A stretch of 64,000 bases of DNA from Bdellovibrionales bacterium (GCA_965217115.1 OZ244239.1:1728001-1792000), one strand, 5' to 3'; counted from the first letter of the stretch, positions 6,891 to 17,668 are shown. Program-made: numbers and translations. Notes: generated from the letters alone by a model not told the origin.

Positions 6891-7897
6891 TGTCATTTAA
6901 AACATGGTATGCCTTTTTCCTAATAATGCCTCTATTATTTGTGGTGTTCTGGAGTTGGTGGGAAAGAAAGGCTAAACGACCTTCTATTCAATTTTCAAAA
7001 ATAGATCTTTTCAAAAAGATAGAGGCTTCTTGGCGCGTCCATTTGATGGGGTTACCGACTTTTTTAAAAATGACAGCTTTGATTTTGGCCATAGTTGCCT
7101 TGGCTCGACCGCAAAGGGCTGATGAGAGAGTGAAGAGAAATGTGGAAGGCATAGATATTGTGATTGCTTTGGATGTCTCTGACAGTATGTTGATTGAGGA
7201 TATGAAGCCATCGGCAAACCGTTTAGAATCGGCTAAGGAGACGATTCGTCAATTTATTGACAAGAGATTATCTGACCGTATTGGGTTGGTTGTTTTTTCA
7301 GGAGAGTCGTACACACGGGTTCCATTGACTCTGGATTACCAACTTTTACAGAAATCTCTAGAAGAAGTACAGATAACAAGAACGGTTAAAATGGGAACGG
7401 CCATTGGAGTGGCCTTGGCAAATGCTGTGGGGCGATTGAGGGAGTCAAAGGCTAAGAGTCGGGTGATTGTTTTTTTAACTGACGGTGAGAACAACAGCGG
7501 AACGATAGACCCTGAAACAGCACTAGAGATAGCTAAGGGATATGATATAAAAATTTACTCTATTGGTGTCGGTAGGGATGGAAACACACGTTTGCCGATA
7601 ATGACGAGAGATGTTTTTGGTAGAAAAGTAAAACGTTATCAACCTTTTTATAGTAAAGTGAATGAAGAGTTACTTGGAAAGATGGCCAAGGAGACAGGAG
7701 GAAAGTTCTACCGTGCGACATCATCTGGAGTCTTAAAGAGTGTATTTAATAATATTGATCGTTTAGAAAAGAGTAAAATAGATGAAAAACATTATGTCAA
7801 ATATGCAGAATTGTTCCCCAATTGGTTAAAGATGTCTCTATTACTTTATCTGTTAGCGTTTTTCCTAGGAAGAACATGGTTGAGGAGGATGCCTTGA
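6890..7897 (+). CDS. batA: BatA-like VWA domain membrane protein
   Basis: ALARPQ, MIDAS DVSDS, DRIGLVVF, GTAIG and LTDGENN motifs; C-terminal TM helix. Confidence 0.9.
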   Translation: MSFKTWYAFFLIMPLLFVVFWSWWERKAKRPSIQFSKIDLFKKIEASWRVHLMGLPTFLKMTALILAIVALARPQRADERVKRNVEGIDIVIALDVSDSMLIEDMKPSANRLESAKETIRQFIDKRLSDRIGLVVFSGESYTRVPLTLDYQLLQKSLEEVQITRTVKMGTAIGVALANAVGRLRESKAKSRVIVFLTDGENNSGTIDPETALEIAKGYDIKIYSIGVGRDGNTRLPIMTRDVFGRKVKRYQPFYSKVNEELLGKMAKETGGKFYRATSSGVLKSVFNNIDRLEKSKIDEKHYVKYAELFPNWLKMSLLLYLLAFFLGRTWLRRMP

Positions 7898-8961
7898 TAT
7901 TTAAATTTGCAGCTCCTGGATTTTTCTATCTTTTAATATTATTGCCACCGATTATTTTATTTTCTGTGTGGTTGCAGCGGTGTGCCCGAAAGAAAATTCA
8001 TGATCACCTCGGCAAAAGGCTTGCACCTTTTTTGGTGTCATCTGTTTCTAAAAGTAAGAGACACTGGAAACTTATTTTAGAGTGCTTGGTGATACTCTTT
8101 GGCCTTTTTTCTTTGGCGCGTCCTCAATCGGGTAAGGAAACTCAAGAGATAAAAAGCGAAGGGGTGGAGTTAATTTTAATGATTGATGTTTCCACCAGTA
8201 TGTTAGCAGAGGATGTGCGCCCGAGTCGGTTAAATTTTGCAAAAAAAGAGATGGAAAAGATTTTAGGATATTTAGATGGAGATAAAGTAGGAATTGTGGC
8301 CTTTGCAGGCTCGGCGGCATTGCTATCACCGATGACGGTGGATAAGTCAGCTCTATTAATGTATTTGGACTCCTTGAGTACGTCTTCGGTGGGGTCCCAG
8401 GGAACGGAGTTTAGTAGGGCTTTGCAGGAGGCAGGTGCGGCTTTTCTCAGAGGAGGAGTTCAGAGAGACGGAAAAAATCAAGTGACAAGGGTCATTGTCA
8501 TTGCTTCTGATGGTGAAGATAATGAAAAAGGAGCGATACAGGAGGCTGAGAAATTATCTAAAGAAGGAGTGCATATTTTTTCTTTGGCTTTTGGAACGGA
8601 AAAAGGTGCGCCGATTCCTTTGAGAGATGGCAACGGTTATTTAAGAGAGTACAAAAAAGACGAGAGTGGAAAAGTGATTCTGAGTCAGACAAAGGGAACT
8701 ATTTTAAAAGAATTGTCACGAATTGGGCATGGAAGTTTTTATCATGCGACCTTTGATAGCGAGGTAGCAGAAAATATTGTAGCGGATATACAGAAATTAC
8801 AAAAAACACAATTTGCTAGCGCAAGTATCGTTAATTATAATGAGTTGTACCAAATTTTCTTATTGATAGCGATATTATTAGGGATTTTAGAAATATTTTT
8901 GGGTGAGAAAAAATCAGGAAGAAGCTTGTGGAAGGGGCGTTTTGAGGTGACAGAGAAATGA
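7894..8961 (+). CDS. batB: BatB-like VWA domain membrane protein
   Basis: SLARPQ, DVSTSM, DKVGIVAFAG and SDGED motifs. The likely start is TTG at 7894, overlapping the batA TGA, with SD GAGGAGG at 7882-7888. Confidence 0.88.
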   Translation: MIFKFAAPGFFYLLILLPPIILFSVWLQRCARKKIHDHLGKRLAPFLVSSVSKSKRHWKLILECLVILFGLFSLARPQSGKETQEIKSEGVELILMIDVSTSMLAEDVRPSRLNFAKKEMEKILGYLDGDKVGIVAFAGSAALLSPMTVDKSALLMYLDSLSTSSVGSQGTEFSRALQEAGAAFLRGGVQRDGKNQVTRVIVIASDGEDNEKGAIQEAEKLSKEGVHIFSLAFGTEKGAPIPLRDGNGYLREYKKDESGKVILSQTKGTILKELSRIGHGSFYHATFDSEVAENIVADIQKLQKTQFASASIVNYNELYQIFLLIAILLGILEIFLGEKKSGRSLWKGRFEVTEK

Positions 8962-9746
8962 TTAAACACATATCTCCAATGAGAAGTTTGCCCATTGCTG
9001 TATCATTTTTACTGGTTATTTTTTCGGAGACTGCTATTTGTGCAGGAGATTATTTAAAAGAATTAAACGTGATTGAGAAGAATAATTCTGCCATAGAGGC
9101 TCTAAAGGAGAAGCAATTAGGGAGAGCATTTAATTCAGTGATCGAAGGTTTGGGAGAAGCTCCTAAGCAAATGGTATTATTATTTAATTTAGGGTTGATT
9201 TATGAGTTTCAGAAAAAACCTGATAAGGCATTGAAAGCTTATGAGCAGGTGCTTGTAGATAAGGCAGCACCTGCAGAGATTCGTTTTTTCAGTGCATTTA
9301 ATATAGCTCGTATTCATGGCGTAGGAAAAAACATTGCTAAAGCATTGAAATATTATCAGAAAGCTTTAGAATTTAAATCTGATTCTGTCGAAGTGAAAAC
9401 CAATATTGAGCTTCTGACAAAACAACAGAATGGCCAGGGAAAGGGGAACGAAGAGAAAAATAATAAGGGAAAGGATCAGGAAAAGGATCAGGAAAAGGAT
9501 CAAGGAAAGGATCAAGGAAAGGATCAGAAAAAGGATCAGGAAAAAGAGAATGATGGTCAGAAGGGTGATAAAAAGCCTGATTCAAATAAAACTAAGGACC
9601 GTAAGAAGCCATTTAAAAGCAAAGAATTGACTGAGGATGACGTGAGAAAGATTTTAGAAGAATTAAAGCAACAAGAAACAAAAATCCGCACGAAAATAAA
9701 TCAGGAGAAGGGCAAGAATGACTCCCCTAATATTAAAGACTGGTAA
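8958..9746 (+). CDS. batC: BatC-like TPR protein with low-complexity linker
   Basis: Signal or anchor segment, TPR motifs (FNLGLIY, YYQKALE), a K/D/Q-rich linker and the terminal KDW typical of this family. Confidence 0.82.
   Translation: MIKHISPMRSLPIAVSFLLVIFSETAICAGDYLKELNVIEKNNSAIEALKEKQLGRAFNSVIEGLGEAPKQMVLLFNLGLIYEFQKKPDKALKAYEQVLVDKAAPAEIRFFSAFNIARIHGVGKNIAKALKYYQKALEFKSDSVEVKTNIELLTKQQNGQGKGNEEKNNKGKDQEKDQEKDQGKDQGKDQKKDQEKENDGQKGDKKPDSNKTKDRKKPFKSKELTEDDVRKILEELKQQETKIRTKINQEKGKNDSPNIKDW
9471..9542 (+). repeat. Six 12-bp tandem repeats (AAGGATCARRRA; KDQE/KDQG/KDQK) in batC
   Basis: Read directly from the sequence. Confidence 0.9.
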
Positions 9747-11652
9747 AATATTATTAAATCTTGTTTTTTTCTTTAGCTTCTCTGTCCATGCACTGGCGAC
9801 TGAGGGCAGTATTGAAGTTCATGCAAAAGTAAATCGTAATAAAATGGGTCTGAATGATAAGCTCAACCTTTCGGTGGTTGTGGTGAGCGAAGAAAGTATG
9901 ATTGTTGAAGAGCCGAGGATACCTCAGCTTGTGGGCTTTGAACTACTCAATACTTGGACAAGTCAAAGCTCTCAAACACAAATTGAACAAGGCCCACAGG
10001 GAATGGAGGTTAAGACAACTAAAATAAAACAATTTGAATATATTTTATCTCCAAAAAAGAAAGGTATCTTGGTAATAAGCTCTTTTAGGGTAAATGTTCA
10101 GGGTAAGATATATAAAACAAAACCGATAAGGATTCAAGTTGCTAAGAGGTTTTCATCACCACCAGTGACAAAAAAAAATCGTGGTAGAGGTCTTGGAAGA
10201 GGCAGAAAAATAGACCCTTTTTCATCAGAACCATTTTCTGAAGTTGAAAAAATGTTCAATCAACTTCTGCAACGCCAAAGAGGAGGAGGCTTTTCAGGCA
10301 GCAAAGGGGAATTAAAAAAAGAAATTTTAGACCCTAAGGAAGTTTTCTTTATTCAGGCCGAGGTGGATAAAAAAGAAGTTTATGTGGGAGAACAGGTGAC
10401 GGTGAGTTGGTATATTTATACCCGTGGGGCTATTGAGTCTATTGATCGTTTGAAATTCCCTGTTTTGAAAAATTTTTGGAAAGAGGATATCGATGTGTCC
10501 CCGTCGTTGCGTTTTCATCAGTACCTAGTGAACGGGTTACCCTATCGTCGTGCTCTTTTAGGCTCTTACGCGTTATTTCCAATCAAAGCTGGTCAAGCAG
10601 TGATCGATTCTTACAGTGTTAGGTGTCGAGTTCGATTGAATACTCGTTTTGGTTTAGGTCGATCACGTCTCTACACGAAAAAGAGTAGGGTGTTAAGAAT
10701 TAAAGTTAAAAGCCTTCCTAAAGTAGGAAAACCTGATAGTTTTACAGGGGCTGTGGGTCACTTTCAGGTAAAGTCAGATGTAAATGCTCACCAGTTCCCA
10801 GTTAATCAACCGTTCTCTATAAAAATTCGTTTTGAGGGAGAGGGGAATGCAAAACTCATAGATATTCCAGCTATTAGATGGCCTGAGCACCTTGAGCTTT
10901 ATGATACCAAAAAAGAATCAAAATTTTTTAAAACAGGGAAGTCCTATAAAGAGTTTGAGGTGTTACTAATACCTCGCCGCGAAGGAAAAATTAAAATCCC
11001 CTCAATGAAGTTGGGGTTGTTTAATCCAAAATCGGGAAAATATGAAGAGAAATCAACAGATGAGATAGAGTTAGAAATAACTCATGGTCGCCAAGATGGA
11101 GTGATAGCTTCTAGTCGTAAATTACCAGAGTTTAAGAAGAAGATAGAAGAGAGAGAAGATTTGCCACTGATGATTCTCTCCGCAGAGAGAGACCCTATTT
11201 TGAGTGAAATGCAGGAGAAATGGATGTGGGTAGGTATTTATTTTTTAATTCTTTTATTCTTAATTTGGTACGGCAGTGTTCAGTTAGGTTGGGGAGATAA
11301 GAAAAAAAATCTACAGGAGCAGGTGAGTCAGAGGATAAAATTGATCTTTAATAAGATAGAGAAAGGTGATCACCGTTCTATTGGCAGTGAAATGACCAAT
11401 TTGGTGTACTTCGTTCTTGGAGAGATCAGTGGACAAGGTGGGGCTAATTTAGAGTTTAGCAAACTCATGGAAAAAGCACCGCCGAGTGTTCGTAAAGAGC
11501 TGAAAAAACCTTTGGGAAAGCTAATGAATTCCTTTGAAATTATAGGATTTGCTCCAGACTCTGTTATAGGAGACTTAAAAGAGAAAGAAGAGTTGAGGCT
11601 TTTAGTGAAAAAGATGGAAATCGTCTTACTAAAGGCGATTCAAAAAAACTAA
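9718..11652 (+). CDS. batD: BatD-family protein
   Basis: Signal peptide, repeated beta-sandwich segments (EVYVGEQV, FTGAVGHF, GEGN) and a C-terminal TM helix; last gene of the bat cluster. Confidence 0.85.
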   Translation: MTPLILKTGKILLNLVFFFSFSVHALATEGSIEVHAKVNRNKMGLNDKLNLSVVVVSEESMIVEEPRIPQLVGFELLNTWTSQSSQTQIEQGPQGMEVKTTKIKQFEYILSPKKKGILVISSFRVNVQGKIYKTKPIRIQVAKRFSSPPVTKKNRGRGLGRGRKIDPFSSEPFSEVEKMFNQLLQRQRGGGFSGSKGELKKEILDPKEVFFIQAEVDKKEVYVGEQVTVSWYIYTRGAIESIDRLKFPVLKNFWKEDIDVSPSLRFHQYLVNGLPYRRALLGSYALFPIKAGQAVIDSYSVRCRVRLNTRFGLGRSRLYTKKSRVLRIKVKSLPKVGKPDSFTGAVGHFQVKSDVNAHQFPVNQPFSIKIRFEGEGNAKLIDIPAIRWPEHLELYDTKKESKFFKTGKSYKEFEVLLIPRREGKIKIPSMKLGLFNPKSGKYEEKSTDEIELEITHGRQDGVIASSRKLPEFKKKIEEREDLPLMILSAERDPILSEMQEKWMWVGIYFLILLFLIWYGSVQLGWGDKKKNLQEQVSQRIKLIFNKIEKGDHRSIGSEMTNLVYFVLGEISGQGGANLEFSKLMEKAPPSVRKELKKPLGKLMNSFEIIGFAPDSVIGDLKEKEELRLLVKKMEIVLLKAIQKN

Positions 11653-11684
11653 CCCGCACAACATCGTCTTGATACTGGCGGGCC
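11642..11684 (-). terminator. Intrinsic terminator of the riboswitch-containing RNA
   Basis: Minus strand reads GGCCCGC-CAGTATC-AAGAC-GATGTTG-T-GCGGGTT followed by AG and seven T. Confidence 0.75.
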
Positions 11685-11685
11685 T

Positions 11686-11712
11686 TTAAGATGAAAGGTT
11701 TGAATTTTTCAT
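11686..11712 (-). CDS. Putative 8-aa micro-ORF (MKNSNLSS) downstream of the riboswitch
   Basis: AAGGAAGGAG SD 6 nt before the ATG; lies between the aptamer and the terminator. Confidence 0.35.
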   Translation of the reverse strand: MKNSNLSS

Positions 11713-11754
11713 TTAGATCTCCTTCCTTACGCGGCTTTTGCCAACGGTCCGTTT

Positions 11755-11845
11755 ACACCTCTGGCAGCTGGCTGGCATTATCAAAAGACTTAGCCCCTGT
11801 AGCTTTGCGTCCTGTCGTTTCCAACAGTTTGCCTTTGGCAAAGGA
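11755..11845 (-). ncRNA. c-di-GMP-I (GEMM-I) riboswitch aptamer
   Basis: Minus strand reads CCAAAGGCAAAC-TGTTG-GAAA-CGACA-GGACGCAAAGCTACAGGGGCTAAG...ATGCCAGCCAGCTGCC. This contains the GGCAAAC segment, a GAAA tetraloop on a paired P2, GACGCAAA, the CTAAG receptor region and the 3' GCC. Confidence 0.93.
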
Positions 11846-11915
11846 AATTGATCGTGAAAATGTTCTAGGTCCTCCTTGATTCTATAGGTAACACAGTGCT
11901 GACTGCATTTCTGAA

Positions 11916-11957
11916 TTATGGGGGGGATTCAGAGATTTGGCACAACACCGTTACCAT
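11916..11957 (-). CDS. Putative 13-aa micro-ORF (MVTVLCQISESPP) upstream of the riboswitch
   Basis: AAGGAGG SD 7 nt before the ATG at 11957. Confidence 0.3.
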   Translation of the reverse strand: MVTVLCQISESPP

Positions 11958-12112
11958 CAAACATCCTCCTTTCAACTGGTCTTTAGAATACTGCAACTCT
12001 TGAAAAACATCTAGAACTGTGGAGTAAAGGGTCTAATATTGAGACACTGAGTTTGATTTGGGCAAATGAGCCACTTTTCAGATGAGTCTTTGCTATTAAG
12101 TTCAGACATAAA

Positions 12113-12904
12113 TTAAGTAAAAGTTTTTTTGATCCTTTCAGCAATAACAGAAAAAGCCTTTCCTTCCTCTCCAGTGGGGTGGCTCTCAATGATGGGAATA
12201 CCAGCTTCGCTAGAAATACTGACAGACAGATTAAAGGGAATCTCACCTAATTTGGGGAGGCCTTTTTGTTCGAGATAGGAGTCGAGTTCTCCTTTGGGGA
12301 AAAGTTGCACTTTTTCTTTTGATTCAGGGGCAATAAGATAAGACATATTTTCAATCAAGCCAATGTGAGGAATTTTTACGGTGTCGAACATATCGATGAA
12401 TTTTTTGACATCTATAAGAGCTAAGTTTTGTGGAGTGCATACGGTAATAGCTCCAGAAACAGGAACTTTTTGAGCGATGGTGAGTTGAATATCGCCTGTT
12501 CCAGGGGGCATATCGATAAGGAGGTAATCTAACTCTCCCCATTCAACATCGCGAAGAAATTGGTGTACAGCCTTAAAGAGCATGGGGCCACGCCAGACAA
12601 CAGCATGATCCTCTTCAACAATGAATCCGATGCTCATGATTTTAAGACCAAGCCTAGAAATAGGAATCATCTTTTGATCTTCAGTGAACATAGGTTTTTG
12701 GTTGATAGCTCCAAAAATTCGTGGAATGCTTGGCCCGTGAATATCAGCATCTAAAATCCCAACCTTGGCTCCTTTTTTGGCAAGAGCCAGAGCGAGGTTA
12801 GAGGTGATGGTGCTTTTTCCCACGCCTCCTTTGCCTGATCCAATAGCAATGATGTGCTTAATACCGTCAATAGGAGACTGTTGGTCAAAAGGATTTGTCG
12901 TCAT
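12113..12904 (-). CDS. mrp: Mrp/ApbC Fe-S cluster carrier ATPase
   Basis: GKGGVGKST, DADIHGPS, VVWRGPM, DMPPGTGD and ENMS motifs. Confidence 0.95.
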   Translation of the reverse strand: MTTNPFDQQSPIDGIKHIIAIGSGKGGVGKSTITSNLALALAKKGAKVGILDADIHGPSIPRIFGAINQKPMFTEDQKMIPISRLGLKIMSIGFIVEEDHAVVWRGPMLFKAVHQFLRDVEWGELDYLLIDMPPGTGDIQLTIAQKVPVSGAITVCTPQNLALIDVKKFIDMFDTVKIPHIGLIENMSYLIAPESKEKVQLFPKGELDSYLEQKGLPKLGEIPFNLSVSISSEAGIPIIESHPTGEEGKAFSVIAERIKKTFT

Positions 12905-13013: not shown

Positions 13014-13133
13014 ATTTAAATCAAAATTCTTCTAAAAATTCATATTTTAATGGCTTTATGTAAAAAATTCATATAGTAAATTGCATCGAATCAAGATAGT
13101 CTTTGCGAGTGATTTTTCTGATGGGAGGACTAA

Positions 13134-14558
13134 TTGAAGACACTAGGCATGTTATTCTTTTTTTGTTTGTTGTTTTGTGGAGAGTTTCAATCATTTTCTT
13201 TCGCAGTATCGACGAAGCCATCATCGAAGTCGTCATTAAGGAGTGTTTTTTTAAAAAAATATCTACAACATTATTTAGCTGAGGATGAATCTCTACAACA
13301 GGCAAAGATAGATCACAAAATTTCTTTAGAAAAGAGTAGAGGAGAAACTGCTTTTTGGAATTCTCAATTATATTCAGGTCCACAGGTAAGAGAATTAAGA
13401 ACAGAGTTGTCTCTGATGGAGAGTTTTGGAAAAAACTCTCTATGGAAAAATAGGCTTGAACAAAGAACGCCATGGGGAGGTGCCCTGTCTATTGAATACA
13501 ATCAACTTCTTGGCGATGATACGTTAAATTCAGCGACGACTAAATCACAGACAGCTTTTTCTTTTGAGAAGTCCCTTTATCGCAATGGATGGGGGCAAGA
13601 AGATAGCTTGAAAGTAACGGCAGCTAGAAAAAGAGTGCGTCGTTCAGCCTTTAGTGAACAGTCCAGTTATCAGATAAGTTGTCTTCAAGGAATCAAAAGT
13701 TATTTGGAATCTTATACATCTCAAGAGAAATTGCAGATTTCTTTGGAAGTAGAAAAAGCGGCACAAAAGGTGTTTAATAAATTAAAAAAAGCATACAAGA
13801 AAAAATTAATACGGAAAATAGATTGGCTAGGCGCTCAAGCAGATTATTTAAAAACTCAATCTCAAAGAAGAGACAGACAGAGGCTTCATAGATTAGAAAT
13901 GGTGAAATTTTCATCTAAAGCACAGATAAGTTCTGAAACATGGTTCTTGAAGAAGCCCCAAGATATTGAATTACAGAAAGGAATTAATTGGCAAGACGGA
14001 ATAGAGCTTAAGGGGTTAAATAACCTATTGGAGCAGAGAGAAGCTGAGAAAAAGAAAGCTGAATTGGATGGGCAAGGAGATCTGGGGTTTCAGGTTCAAC
14101 TCTCAAACACTCAAGGTTACAGTCTGGCAGCAGGGGATAATTTCCAACAAGCAAATTGGGTGGTTTCGTTGAATTTTTCATGGCCCCTGTACAATGGAGT
14201 TTTGAAGTCAAATAAGAGTCAAGCAGACTTAAGAGTTCTAAGAACTTTTAAAGAGATTAAAAAACAAAGAAAAAATAGCTCGATTGAGTGGAGAAGAGCC
14301 TTGATCTCTCTAGAAAATCAAAAAGAACAGGAGGGTTTTAATCGTCGGCAACAGATTATAGAAAAGAAACGAGTTCTTGAAGCAAGAAGACTTCTTATTA
14401 CAGGGAGAATCGAATTTGAAAACTACATCAGTTACCGAGATCAGAGATTTAGTAGTCGTCTGAAGTACTTAGATCTCTTGCAAGAGAAGATATTATTAAA
14501 GGCATCATTGTTAAGGTTAAGTGGATATCTAGGGCGTTTCTGTGAGGGACTTCTATGA
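13134..14558 (+). CDS. TolC-family outer membrane efflux protein
   Basis: Signal peptide, alternating helical and beta segments (VVSLNFSWPLYNG, GRIEFENY), and an overlap with an RND gene. The start may be ATG at 13149. Confidence 0.75.
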   Translation: MKTLGMLFFFCLLFCGEFQSFSFAVSTKPSSKSSLRSVFLKKYLQHYLAEDESLQQAKIDHKISLEKSRGETAFWNSQLYSGPQVRELRTELSLMESFGKNSLWKNRLEQRTPWGGALSIEYNQLLGDDTLNSATTKSQTAFSFEKSLYRNGWGQEDSLKVTAARKRVRRSAFSEQSSYQISCLQGIKSYLESYTSQEKLQISLEVEKAAQKVFNKLKKAYKKKLIRKIDWLGAQADYLKTQSQRRDRQRLHRLEMVKFSSKAQISSETWFLKKPQDIELQKGINWQDGIELKGLNNLLEQREAEKKKAELDGQGDLGFQVQLSNTQGYSLAAGDNFQQANWVVSLNFSWPLYNGVLKSNKSQADLRVLRTFKEIKKQRKNSSIEWRRALISLENQKEQEGFNRRQQIIEKKRVLEARRLLITGRIEFENYISYRDQRFSSRLKYLDLLQEKILLKASLLRLSGYLGRFCEGLL

Positions 14559-17500
14559 GGAGGTTAATAGATTATTTTGCTGGTCGTTCTTTTATTGTAA
14601 ACTTACTTGTTATTTTTGTATGTGTTGTAGGTTATTTGGCTATGACATCTATGAATAGAAGTCTAGTGCCATCTTGGGAACAGCGTCAAACTGTTGTGAA
14701 TGTGCTTTTACCGGGAGCTTCGTCTCAAGAGATGGAACGCCTAGTGACTTATCCCATTGAGATTGCATTAAAAGATTTGCCTGGAGTGGAAAAGATAACA
14801 TCTTCAAGTGGTGCAGGCTATTCCAGAATTCGGTTGTATTTTGAAGATAGCTATGAAGATTTAGATAAAGTGACAGAGAATGCTCGCGCCCGTGTGGAAG
14901 GGCTTCGCAATCGATTGCCAGAGTCAGTTCGTTCCATTACGGTAAAAAGAATTAAAAAAGAGACTGAAATTCTCATGTATATCTCTATTGAAGGAGCTGA
15001 CGATTTTAATTTTGAACACCGCAGGCGGATAAAAAAACTCTCTAAAAAAATCGAAAATATTAAAGGAATTTCTTTCGCCGCAGATCATATGCGAGAACAA
15101 GAGATTGTTATTCATCTGGACCCAGAGAAGCTTAATTTCTATGGTCTATCGACCAGTGATGTGCGTGGTAAGATCAGTCGCTATCGTGCTTATGCACCAA
15201 TAGGACAGATTACGCAGGATGAAGATGTCTACAACATTGAAGTATCAAATTCTGTGGCCTCGATCGAAGAGCTATCTAAAATCCCTATTAGTTCTAATCG
15301 CAGTGGTTACATTGTGCGATTACAAGATTTGGGAAAGGTGAATTACGATCTATCCCAGCGATCGTTCTTGATGAGAGTGAATGGGAAAAGAGCTGTTTTG
15401 ATGAGAGTAGAGAAGGGATCTTCTGCGGACACTATTGATCTTGGCAAAGAAGTCAAAGAAGTAGTAAATCGCTTCAATAAAAAATATTCCACGTTAAAAG
15501 CAGAGATTATGTTTGATCTACCATTTTTTTTAGAGAAACAGTTAGAGAGTTTAAAAGTAAATGGATTTTTAGGCCTCCTATTTGTTTTTGCGATGATGCT
15601 GTTGTTCTTTGATTGGAGAGCGGCGCTCATGACAATTATTGGTTTGCCAGTAGTTTATTTGGGAACTTTTATTGTTCTCGCTTATCTAGGTATACCTATT
15701 AATCTTATCTTTATTGTTGGGATGTTATTGATCTTAGGTATTTTGGTGGATGATGCGATCATTGTTTCTGAAAAATACATGGCAAATTTAGAAAGTGGTC
15801 TTGAGCCTAAGGAAGCTGCAGTCAAAGCGGCACAGGCTCTGATTATGCCAGTGACAGGAACAGTGTTGACTACGGTTGTGGCTTTTTCTCCATTGTTGTT
15901 AGTGAAAAGTAGTTTTTCAAATGTTTTTTTTGCGCTTCCTGTTGTGGTAATTGTGGCTCTTAGCTTGAGTTGGATTGAAGCTTTTTTTATTCTTCCCAAT
16001 CATTTGCAGCATATTGTGAAAAAAAATAAAAATAAGAAAATTGATGTGTTCAAAAAGCTCCGTCAAAAATATGAACAGATATTAAAGGTCTTTTTTAAAT
16101 ACAGATATATCACCTTACTGGCTAGCCTTGTTTTCATAGTCATTTCAGGCTATGTGGCTCTTAATAAGGTAGAACATCAATTTAATCTACAGATTGGTTT
16201 AGAGAGAGTCGATGTAACAGTTATTTTAAAAAGCAGTGGTTCTTTTGAAGAGACGGAAAAGAAGCTTAAGCCGCTGTCTGATTATTTAAACAAAATGGGA
16301 AGTCGACAAGTAGATGCGGTGCAAACAAAAATTGGTTCTATGTGGTATCAAGGAAAACAATTAAAAGGGGATCGTTATGCTCGTTTTTCTATTTACATAG
16401 ATAAGGAGGCTAAATACCCTGGAGAGGTCAAAAAAACTCTAGAAAAAAGAATTCAAAGTGGAGTGAAAAAGTTTAAAACAGATGACTTTGAAGAACTAAA
16501 TGTTCGGGGGCTCAGGGAAGGGGACGAGAAAAGAAAGCTTCAACTGGTTTCGATCAGTGTTCGTGGGGCTGAGGATATTGATTTCACCGATATAGAGAAA
16601 GTAATCATTGCCCATGCATTGAAGACAAAAGGTGTGAAAGAAGCGGCCATGAATGAAGAGATGTACGAAGTGTCTTGGAGGTTTCACCCTAATCACCAAG
16701 CTTTACAGCAGTATGGATTGACGCCAGCCACATTGGCCCATCAAATACGGGGGTTTTTCACTAAAAACTTTCTAAGTGAGATTCGTCTTCATGGAGAACC
16801 ATTAAATCTTTATACAAAAATTATAACGGAGGAAAATATTAAATTTGAAAACCTAAAGTCATTTCATGTGGTGAGTTCCAGAGGAGTTAAAGTTCCGTTG
16901 CCTTTTTTAGGGAAGTGGGTTTCGGGTCGGTCTTTAAAGGAAATTTTTCATAAAGATGGTTTACGGAATTTAACATTGGATTTCAAACTAGATCAGAAAG
17001 AAGGCAATGCGAGCTTAGTGATAGATAGATTGAAGAAAGCGCTCATTCCTGTGCAAAAGAAGTTTCCAACCTATGAGATTGAGGTGTCGGAAGCTGACAA
17101 TCAGGCGAAGGAAGGTAAGGCTTGGGGCTTAAAAATAGCGATAATTTGTCTGGGTGGAGTGTTGTTGATTCTGTCATTGGTATTGGGGTCTTTATCCCAA
17201 CCTTTCTTGGTGGGGCTGCCAATCCCTTTTGGATTGGCAGGGATTATATGGGCGCTGTATCTCCATGGACTTCCTTTGAGTGTTATGGCAATTGTAGGAG
17301 TTGTCGGAGTGATCGGCGTTGCAGTGAACGATTCCTTAATTATGGTCGATGGTATAAATAAGCTCTGTCAGGGGAGAGGAGTGAAGATGAGTCGAAGTTT
17401 GTTGATTGATGGAGCATCTCAGAGGTTGCGAGCTATTGTGTTAACAACGATGACGACTCTTGGCGGTGTTTTGCCTATGGCTTATTCGTGGGGAGGAGAG

Positions 17501-17668
17501 TCGGGATTTACTCAACCTCTGGCATTTTCTATTGGTTGGGGATTATTATTCTCCACGTTGATGACGTTGTTTGTGTTGCCACCTCTTTTGGAAATTAGGG
17601 AGGATATTCTCTCTTTAGGAAGAGGCTTGCTATTTAGAGGGAAAAACCAGAAATCCCACCAAAATTGA
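14555..17668 (+). CDS. RND (AcrB-family) transporter permease
   Basis: 1037 aa; PGASSQEMERLVT, GILVDDAIIV, TTVVAFSPL and RLRAIVLTT motifs; 12-TM pattern. Confidence 0.93.
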   Translation: MRRLIDYFAGRSFIVNLLVIFVCVVGYLAMTSMNRSLVPSWEQRQTVVNVLLPGASSQEMERLVTYPIEIALKDLPGVEKITSSSGAGYSRIRLYFEDSYEDLDKVTENARARVEGLRNRLPESVRSITVKRIKKETEILMYISIEGADDFNFEHRRRIKKLSKKIENIKGISFAADHMREQEIVIHLDPEKLNFYGLSTSDVRGKISRYRAYAPIGQITQDEDVYNIEVSNSVASIEELSKIPISSNRSGYIVRLQDLGKVNYDLSQRSFLMRVNGKRAVLMRVEKGSSADTIDLGKEVKEVVNRFNKKYSTLKAEIMFDLPFFLEKQLESLKVNGFLGLLFVFAMMLLFFDWRAALMTIIGLPVVYLGTFIVLAYLGIPINLIFIVGMLLILGILVDDAIIVSEKYMANLESGLEPKEAAVKAAQALIMPVTGTVLTTVVAFSPLLLVKSSFSNVFFALPVVVIVALSLSWIEAFFILPNHLQHIVKKNKNKKIDVFKKLRQKYEQILKVFFKYRYITLLASLVFIVISGYVALNKVEHQFNLQIGLERVDVTVILKSSGSFEETEKKLKPLSDYLNKMGSRQVDAVQTKIGSMWYQGKQLKGDRYARFSIYIDKEAKYPGEVKKTLEKRIQSGVKKFKTDDFEELNVRGLREGDEKRKLQLVSISVRGAEDIDFTDIEKVIIAHALKTKGVKEAAMNEEMYEVSWRFHPNHQALQQYGLTPATLAHQIRGFFTKNFLSEIRLHGEPLNLYTKIITEENIKFENLKSFHVVSSRGVKVPLPFLGKWVSGRSLKEIFHKDGLRNLTLDFKLDQKEGNASLVIDRLKKALIPVQKKFPTYEIEVSEADNQAKEGKAWGLKIAIICLGGVLLILSLVLGSLSQPFLVGLPIPFGLAGIIWALYLHGLPLSVMAIVGVVGVIGVAVNDSLIMVDGINKLCQGRGVKMSRSLLIDGASQRLRAIVLTTMTTLGGVLPMAYSWGGESGFTQPLAFSIGWGLLFSTLMTLFVLPPLLEIREDILSLGRGLLFRGKNQKSHQN

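Follow-up and report, generated by a model that had tools for sequence, protein, structure and literature searches.

Riboswitches of the cyclic di-GMP (c-di-GMP)-I class (GEMM-I, Rfam family RF01051), of which Vc2 from Vibrio cholerae is an example, share a fold composed of helix P1, helix P2 with its GAAA tetraloop, and helix P3. Leader-peptide attenuators with proline codons or proline-stop ends, such as Salmonella mgtL and mgtP or Escherichia coli tnaC, consist of a short open reading frame (ORF) led by a Shine-Dalgarno (SD) sequence, with a proline-rich end, and of alternative hairpins ahead of a terminator; the mgtA and mgtCBR leaders combine such an ORF with a ligand-sensing RNA. The closest described system to the one treated here is merRNA (massively expressed riboswitch RNA), which Karunker et al. 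(2013, PMC3627812) reported from Bdellovibrio bacteriovorus HD100. It spans 1,073,741-1,074,185 on the minus strand and occurs once per genome; its c-di-GMP-I aptamer stands alone, followed by a terminator of its own but by no gene. As far as the available text of that paper goes, merRNA was not seen to be conserved beyond Bdellovibrio, nor was its riboswitch followed by any conserved ORF.

Here we examine a comparable minus-strand element from a Bdellovibrionales bacterium (GCA_965217115.1, OZ244239.1:1728001-1792000). The 64,000-nucleotide stretch that was analysed is called the window, and positions are counted from its first letter. Like merRNA, the element consists of a stand-alone c-di-GMP-I aptamer (11758-11843) with its own terminator (11642-11684), is devoid of a downstream gene and occurs once in its genome. 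It would be a self-contained RNA, transcribed downstream of an mrp-type gene and converging on batD, that controls no conventional gene. From 5' to 3', this RNA would carry a micro-ORF (ORF1) enclosed in a long hairpin, an SD-like box, a CU-rich anti-SD tract, the aptamer, a further SD box (SD2) followed by a second micro-ORF (ORF2), and the terminator. On balance, we favour the explanation that the element is an orthologue of merRNA whose aptamer would gate ribosome access beside the terminator.

Distribution and relationship to merRNA

A c-di-GMP-I match was found in 33 of 61 genomes of the same order (the window's genome included), one in each, and in 101 of the 151 genomes of an even sample of the order, 99 of them with a single copy and two with two copies. 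Families, genera, genomes and loci are referred to by our own numbering. The aptamer was present in all 31 genomes of family f10, in 24 of 26 in f2, 23 of 31 in f12, 13 of 31 in f5, all four in f4, two of seven in f3, one of three in f8, one of two in f13, and in the single genome of f1 besides that of the window; no match was obtained in f6 (one genome), f7 (five), f9 (seven) or f11 (one). The predicted merRNA-type unit spans nine families of the order, beyond the range stated for merRNA. The only two-copy genomes among the 151 searched, G100 and G120, belong to genus g53 of f2; their loci (L189 and L210, respectively) carry two tandem same-strand c-di-GMP-I aptamers about 850-1060 nt apart, each with an SD-led proline-rich micro-ORF and a terminator, one of which is then followed by a gene for a 242-aa signal-peptide protein.

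Locus comparison covered 92 copies of the aptamer, drawn from 90 genomes. Of these copies, 90 are followed by a hairpin and T-run at a distance of 61-162 nt; the window has a distance of 111 nt, and G066, a genome of f10, one of 115 nt. An mrp-type homologue lies upstream on the same strand at 50 of the 90 loci, in eight of the nine families and with the window among them; mrp is convergent at two loci and absent from the fetched flank at 38, where it should be noted that the flank was just 750 nt long for 60 loci. The G066 aptamer (1,073,868-1,073,951, minus strand) falls within the published HD100 merRNA interval, whose 3' end is located 4 nt past the terminator T-run and whose 5' end precedes the aptamer by 234 nt. 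Bdellovibrio thus belongs to family f10, whose loci are merRNA loci; 15 of the 31 loci of this family have mrp upstream on the same strand, as does the window. A profile built from 27 f10 tails (aptamer end to terminator) and run with nhmmer found its best match in a 128-kb search space at 11739-11636 on the minus strand, colinear and covering model positions 15-125, with a weak E-value of 0.23, while an nhmmer profile of the f10 5' parts gave no match at the window locus.

The first-pass annotation of this locus had proposed either a homologue or an analogue of merRNA. The single copy, the mrp synteny, the aptamer-terminator spacing (111 vs 115 nt) and the tail match, even at an E-value of just 0.23, argue for a homologue, and the window element, which comes from another family of the order, is very probably orthologous by position to the merRNA of Bdellovibrio. 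Both RNAs have an SD-led 5' micro-ORF, a CU tract ahead of P1 and an SD-like box past the aptamer. They differ in that the window element resides in a small 2.17-Mb genome of another family and in that its predicted length is about 335 nt, within a range of roughly 270-340 nt, instead of the 445 nt of merRNA. Their micro-ORF ends differ as well: ORF1 ends with SPP-stop in the window and with DEPPK-stop or DDELK-stop in the merRNA type, and ORF2 reads MKNSNLSS-stop in the window while merRNA-type ORF2 ends with DWFHSP-stop. A metagenome search with an f1-specific pattern yielded no loci, and one with a relaxed pattern yielded 26 loci, mostly f10-like, none of them close to the window's copy.

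Identity and class of the aptamer

The RF01051 model matches the minus strand at 11843-11760 over its full length (model positions 1-87 of 87) with 71.5 bits (cut-off 35, E 4e-14), confirming by covariance model the GEMM-I aptamer that the first-pass annotation had recognized, and this is the sole RF01051 match in the whole genome, searched as one contig of 2,170,531 bp. Together with a 6-bp P1, whose 3' strand CAGAGG is found at 11763-11758, the aptamer covers 11758-11843. When the 64-kb window was compared to Rfam with cmscan, the single match above its gathering score, and the best-ranked after clan competition, was RF03167 (c-di-GMP-I-GGC) at 11842-11759 on the minus strand (61.4 bits, cut-off 59, E 4.7e-12). 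Weak matches to snoR24 and IMES-1 (E 0.16 and 0.17) lay far under their own cut-offs and were dismissed as chance.

To place the aptamer within its class, we relied on an alignment (A1) with one copy per genus from 39 genera. The window aptamer contains AAAGGCAAAC, with G at 11833/11832, as well as GGCAAAC, CGCAAAGC and UGCCA. No variation occurs at bases G35, C59, C61, A62-A64, G96-C98 and C104-C105 (window row). The columns that we take to be equivalent to the ligand-contact positions G20, A47 and C92 of Vc2, in a numbering that we likewise assume, are invariant or at least 90% conserved among the 39 genus representatives, and the conserved contact bases are those of classical c-di-GMP-I riboswitches. 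Such invariance across the order predicts that the aptamer binds c-di-GMP, and we consider functional binding by the window copy likely; the conservation pattern indicates that this copy is under purifying selection. Potential makers and readers of the ligand are encoded in the same genome, with two GGDEF and five PilZ matches.

The GGC label, which presumably denotes the A/G position in the CGC-G-AA segment, does not suit this aptamer. The window has A in CGCAAAGC where the variant consensus CGCGAAgC has G, A occupies this position in all 39 genus representatives, and RF01051 outscores RF03167 by 10 bits. The presence of A where the variant has G identifies the aptamer as an ordinary c-di-GMP type on which the Rfam clan ranking is misleading; by its predicted class it should not be filed as a GGC variant, and annotators should be aware that this ranking mislabels merRNA-type aptamers. 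The earlier suggestion that the G20 and C92 equivalents fit c-di-GMP agrees with the G at the G20-equivalent position, the intact UGCCA and the A, not G, at the GGC position.

Helix P1 (CCUUUG/CARAGG) is paired in 97.0% of 234 alignment cells with six double changes; sliding the partner by 1-3 columns left 29.1-68.4% paired, and none of 500 shuffles reached the observed value. P2 and P3 are likewise paired in the alignment from cmscan, one of the pairs being non-standard. Unlike classical c-di-GMP-I riboswitches, the window aptamer has no gene in cis, its expression platform facing an 8-codon frame and a terminator.

An anti-SD/SD helix sharing bases with P1

The CU-rich anti-SD tract UUUCCUUUG (11839-11847, minus strand), delimited by the alignment consensus and pair counts, ends within the aptamer, its last six bases, CCUUUG (11844-11839), being the 5' strand of P1; the tract's consensus in A1, ATCCTTCCTTTG, likewise ends in the P1 5' strand. 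Past the aptamer, SD2 (AAGGAAGGAG, 11719-11728, minus strand) forms the 3' strand of a long-range helix, here named P0, which has an RNAduplex energy of -11.9 kcal/mol and appears in the unconstrained minimum-free-energy fold. In the window, P0 pairs UUUCCUU with AAGGAAG and is extended by GAUC at 11719-11716 with GAUC at 11854-11851. In relatives, P0 joins the CU tract to a GGRAGGA box about 25-35 nt past the aptamer. Pairing holds in 66.2% of cells, compared with 45.6-56.2% for a slid partner, and was equalled by one shuffle in 500; each of the five core pairs occurs in 30-35 of 36 genus representatives. The RNAduplex z-score of P0 against shuffled CU tracts is weak (median -1.2), since a purine box will pair with whatever CU-rich sequence is offered, which makes the aligned pair counts the better test.

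P0 and P1 have two C residues in common. The minimum-free-energy fold of the window RNA, P0 included, reaches -101.9 kcal/mol and the fold in which the aptamer is enforced -87.4 kcal/mol, so that forming the aptamer costs 14.5 kcal/mol in the model. In the enforced fold, a local alternative partner for SD2 (GGAAGG) is provided by CCUUUC inside ORF2 (11692-11697, minus strand), the counterpart of UUUCAUUCC in f10. Single-sequence tail folds of G066, of a genome of genus g11 and of the f1 genome G001 also contain a local helix between SD2 and UUUCAUUCC; since the UUUCAUUCC motif is invariant, this helix receives no support from covariation and is kept as tentative.

A second AAGGAGG (box 1, 11871-11877, minus strand) is complementary to the CU tract and has no canonical start codon behind it. 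An AAGGAGG or TAGGAGG box occupies this place in most f10, f1 and metagenome rows of the alignment and is also seen in other families. Two of the 11 AAGGAGG sites of the window, both strands considered, fall in this single RNA. At locus L151 (G066, nt 176-230 of merRNA), we observed by eye that AUAACUC, directly ahead of the AAGGAGG box, could pair with GGGUUAU in the next hairpin's loop and also with GAGUUAU in the 5' arm of the terminator.

Micro-ORFs on both sides of the aptamer

ORF1 is preceded by the other of these AAGGAGG sequences (11965-11971, minus strand), which is also one of just two AAGGAGG-N4-9-ATG sites in the window. It starts 7 nt farther with ATG at 11957 and runs for 13 codons (MVTVLCQISESPP) to a TAA at 11918-11916, occupying 11916-11957 on the minus strand and ending with Pro-Pro-stop. 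A long hairpin encloses it (11887-11955, minus strand) in both the unconstrained and the aptamer-enforced folds, with an apical stem UCUGAAU/AUUCAGA and a loop that holds the proline codons and the stop codon.

Relatives display an SD-led frame of 10-30 codons at the ORF1 position. A strict D-P-P-(P/F/A)-(K/E)-stop block was detected in 32 of 118 loci (13 of 20 in f12, 10 of 13 in f5, all four in f4, both in f3 and 3 of 26 from metagenomes) and in none of the f1, f2, f8, f10 and f13 loci of this set. Across 31 distinct D-P-P blocks, mean column entropy amounts to 1.11, 0.99 and 1.60 bits at codon positions 1, 2 and 3; the three proline codons are fixed at positions 1-2 and free at position 3 (1.8-1.9 bits), leucine (CTN/TTG) and arginine (CGN/AGR) codons are swapped synonymously, and TAG, TAA and TGA are all used. 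This combination of position-3 variation, synonymous changes and mixed stops points to protein-level selection on the peptide of f3, f4, f5 and f12, which reads P(K/R)(D/E)(R/W)xLDPPP(K/E)-stop at its end. In f10, 28 of 31 loci have an SD-led ORF of the type M(K/R)xRI(H/F/Y)DHxD(E/K)xPK-stop, ending with xPK-stop or ELK-stop; the G066-type ORF1 (MRTHEHHDDELK), whose frame lies within the published merRNA, has lost the prolines. ORF1 is absent from f2, where a sigma-70-like promoter stands just ahead of the aptamer.

ORF2 (11686-11712, minus strand) comprises eight codons, MKNSNLSS, and a stop. Its ATG at 11712 is 6 nt past GGAG, and its TAA at 11688-11686 ends one base ahead of the first G-U pair of the terminator hairpin and three ahead of CCCGCC. 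Among 55 distinct f10-type tails, metagenome sequences included, 43 have TTTCATTCCCCT followed by a stop; of these, 41 retain an in-frame ATG although the length of the frame ranges from 7 to 22 codons. These ORFs end with (D)WFHSP-stop and use TAG 24 times, TAA 12 times and TGA 7 times, the offset between stop and terminator stem being -2 to +2 nt. The SD-led ORF2 frame of f2 and f4 extends into the terminator hairpin. We propose that ORF2 is probably read in f1, f2, f4 and f10, part of its conservation acting on the RNA. At L156, L157 and L159 (f10, genus g31), the ORF2 stop is replaced by CGC and the frame continues into the terminator hairpin (MEGLFITKDWFHSPRL).

Terminator and candidate promoters

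The segment 11690-11640 (minus strand) folds as a 14-bp hairpin of -17.1 kcal/mol (z -3.61, none of 200 shuffles being as good) followed by UUAG and seven U. The resulting intrinsic terminator, identified from its fold energy and from relatives, extends over 11642-11684 and consists of the hairpin 11684-11651 with its apical AUCAAGACGAU, UUAG, and U7 at 11648-11642. Its stem begins 74 nt past the last base of the aptamer, close to the 70 nt or so first estimated, and its U-run 111 nt past. The apical AUCA..GA.GAU is common to the window and f10. A bulge in the hairpin explains why a simple terminator scan missed it.

A weak candidate promoter, read from the sequence, lies at 11985-12013 on the minus strand (-35 TAGATG at 12013-12008, 17-nt spacer, -10 TATTCT at 11990-11985) and would place the RNA start near 11978, in agreement with the boundary at 11975 set by the first-pass annotation. 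The window's TATTCT...GTTGAAA resembles the TATCCT...GTTGAAA found in G066 just ahead of the published merRNA 5' end. A look-up of sequencing runs covering 11600-12120 listed no RNA run; the four data sets that contain this stretch stem from one study and consist of contigs.

Proposed mechanism

The two SD-led micro-ORFs, together with an anti-SD/SD helix sharing two bases with P1, make a cis output likely, namely ribosome access beside the terminator. Besides binding c-di-GMP, the aptamer would gate this access: as P1 and P0 share two C residues, a ligand-stabilised P1 should change the sequestration of SD2 and of the ORF2 AUG. A ribosome that terminates on ORF2 stops 1-3 nt from the stem and must occupy the 5' arm of the terminator, so that, given this geometry, translation of ORF2 and formation of the terminator or 3'-protective hairpin would be mutually exclusive. 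The output would then be the 3'-end formation or the stability of the RNA itself, and any read-through would run antisense into batD. Pro-Pro-stop and polyproline ends slow elongation and termination and need EF-P; ORF1 may for this reason add a second, ribosome-dependent input. An RNA that is made for its own sake would also necessarily buffer some ligand. Translation-coupled control of the RNA's own 3' end is put forward as a tentative model, compatible with either sign of the switch.

Leader-peptide attenuators offer the nearest parallel to this arrangement, the short SD-led ORF with its proline-rich end and the alternative hairpins before the terminator being common to both. As in attenuators, ORF1 lies in a hairpin (11955-11887) and the ORF2 stop is 1-3 nt from the terminator stem. 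Unlike in attenuators, regulated structural genes are lacking past the terminator on the minus strand, such genes being present in f2 alone, the ligand is a second messenger, and ribosome stalling is putative.

Several observations weigh against the orthologous, ribosome-gating element that we favour. Similarity to f10 outside the aptamer is marginal, with the tail match at an E-value of 0.23 and nothing in the 5' part. The window ORF1 resembles the conserved peptide solely in its position, its SD and its Pro-Pro end, from which homology to the relatives' peptides is inferred, and its family-mate G001 has no SD-led ORF1. The sole site returned by a promoter scan, GTGCCA-17-CATAAT at 11943-11915 on the minus strand, is a rival to the promoter described above; it lies inside ORF1 and would exclude this ORF from the RNA. 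The window ORF2 peptide is not conserved with the f10-type peptides, the F-H-S-P codons show no synonymous change, and the UUCAUU(U)CC motif occurs in different reading frames in f4 and f10, the window version being 4 nt shorter and in yet another frame. This lack of synonymous change and these frame shifts imply that part of the conservation of the ORF2 region acts on RNA. In most f12 and f5 loci, SD2 is kept but no SD-led ORF2 like the one in f1, f2, f4 and f10 accompanies it; the ORFs recorded at this place mostly start with TTG or GTG and encode peptides that are not conserved between genera. Translation of ORF2 thus cannot be a universal output. As for P0, it consists of two conserved complementary motifs with scant true covariation and poor outer pairs, SD2 stays paired in the aptamer-enforced fold (to CCUUUC), and P0 could stack on a shortened P1 rather than compete with it.

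Downstream neighbours and alternative explanations

The first-pass annotation saw no gene for the riboswitch to control. This stands for conventional genes, the minus strand between 8000 and 11642 containing only ORFs of at most 85 aa, all within bat genes, but it overlooked the two SD-led micro-ORFs within the unit. Outside f2, downstream ORFs differ in strand and identity, and the flanks of the 29 other loci in an initial set revealed no BatD homologue. Such variation of the downstream neighbour among relatives suggests that the conserved unit ends at the terminator. Many f2 loci have, just past the terminator, an ORF on the same strand whose start resembles a signal peptide; within genus g3 of this family, a cysteine-rich secreted protein of about 130-200 aa is encoded behind the terminator in 9 of 11 loci (L003, L006, L011, L022, L190 and L206-L209), two loci fusing the protein in frame to the micro-ORF through the T-run. 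The protein belongs to no Pfam family, and a single query found no homologue in the window's genome. The unit may work as a classical leader in f2.

The merRNA paper (PMC3627812, in its available text) proposes a pure ligand store, that is, an RNA that soaks up c-di-GMP and releases it on degradation; SD boxes and micro-ORFs would then be structural or incidental. One copy per genome, no downstream gene, a strong terminator and invariant binding-site bases all suit a store, as does a window ORF2 peptide that is not conserved. The store model is compatible with all observations, though the extra conserved features fall outside it: storage needs just an aptamer with stabilising ends, and it leaves unexplained a protein-constrained ORF1 in five families, a conserved anti-SD/SD pair sharing P1 bases, and a stop codon at the terminator base for which all three stop codons are used. 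We regard pure storage as rather unlikely. Another kind of sponge, sequestering CsrA in the manner of CsrB or RsmZ, was rejected on the ground that GGA motifs are not enriched, with 292 observed vs 256.6 expected in 39 representatives, a median z of 0.6 and only 3 of 39 with z above 2; csrA is present once in the window's genome.

The remaining alternatives tie the element to neighbouring genes. That the terminator acts as an expression platform, the ligand deciding on antisense transcription into the convergent bat operon, is suggested by the convergence of the genes and by a terminator hairpin sitting on the batD stop codon, and a riboswitch acting via antisense RNA is mentioned as a precedent in the available text of PMC3627812; with downstream neighbours varying and no BatD homologue in the flanks of those 29 other loci, this reading appears very improbable. 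About as improbable, if not slightly more so, is a 3'-untranslated-region element of mrp, an RNA derived from mrp read-through or processing and acting on mrp expression. The synteny with mrp in 50 of 90 loci speaks for it, and a terminator scan returned no terminator-like site between the mrp stop (12113) and 11990; yet the published merRNA 5' end in G066 falls in the gap after mrp, P_merRNA serves as a strong independent promoter according to the available text of the literature, mrp is convergent at two loci and was not found in the fetched flank at 38, and f2 has its own promoter beside the aptamer. The least probable reading is a relic of a classical cis-acting riboswitch whose gene was lost or moved. 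It draws on f2, with its promoter just ahead of the aptamer, its lack of ORF1 and the same-strand gene past the terminator in 9 of 11 g3 loci, and the first-pass annotation had reasoned that relatives with a full gene downstream would mark the window copy as a deletion relic. Such relatives exist but are confined to f2, which argues that the window copy is no deletion relic: in the other eight families the unit is kept and no conserved gene follows it, and the single query for the f2 protein found no homologue in the window's genome. A relic would decay, yet the binding-site bases are invariant, the terminator follows 90 of 92 copies, and the element is retained as a single copy in a small 2.17-Mb genome.

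Genomic context

The gene directly upstream, at 12113-12904 on the minus strand, encodes a 263-aa P-loop ATPase of the mrp/apbC type (Pfam PF10609, ParA/NUBPL, E 4.1e-95) and is the synteny anchor of the merRNA locus. A 33-codon ATG frame with no obvious SD begins 4 nt past its stop (12010-12108, minus strand). On the opposite side, batD (9718-11652, plus strand; 644 aa; Pfam PF13584 BatD, E 4.6e-34) is convergent with the element, its stop codon at 11650-11652 sitting between the terminator hairpin and the U-run. It is the last gene of a bat (Bacteroides aerotolerance-type) cluster at 7822-11652 on the plus strand, in which genes for a VWA/BatA-like protein (7822-8961), a TPR protein (8958-9746) and BatD have overlapping stops and starts. 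Farther away, 13134-17668 on the plus strand encodes an outer-membrane efflux protein (OEP, 474 aa) then an AcrB-type RND transporter (1037 aa), a pair divergent from a minus-strand ORF of 134 aa (13069-13473) that has no Pfam match.

Implications

As a riboswitch, the window copy is ordinary, and its value lies in the family comparison. We found no description of merRNA micro-ORFs or of order-wide conservation in a search of article texts; later papers, in their available text, treat merRNA just as a predicted riboswitch or make use of its strong promoter, and what the RNA does has been debatable since 2013. The window locus shows the unit kept far outside the genus Bdellovibrio, as the sole c-di-GMP riboswitch of a reduced genome, and the comparison of the family provides handles on this RNA: a protein-constrained polyproline micro-ORF, an anti-SD/SD helix sharing P1 bases, and a stop codon at the foot of the terminator. 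These handles turn the ligand-store question into mutants and assays feasible in B. bacteriovorus.

A broader and more speculative proposal, which we hold to be doubtful, is that merRNA-family RNAs are ribosome-engaging sensors and not passive sponges, a conserved polyproline or Pro-stop arrest micro-ORF ahead of the aptamer and another past it combining translation capacity (EF-P, proline, ribosome availability) with the c-di-GMP level. If this were true, the micro-ORFs would set the lifetime or the 3' end of an abundant c-di-GMP-binding RNA and so time the release of the ligand at the predator's switch from the non-growing to the growing state.

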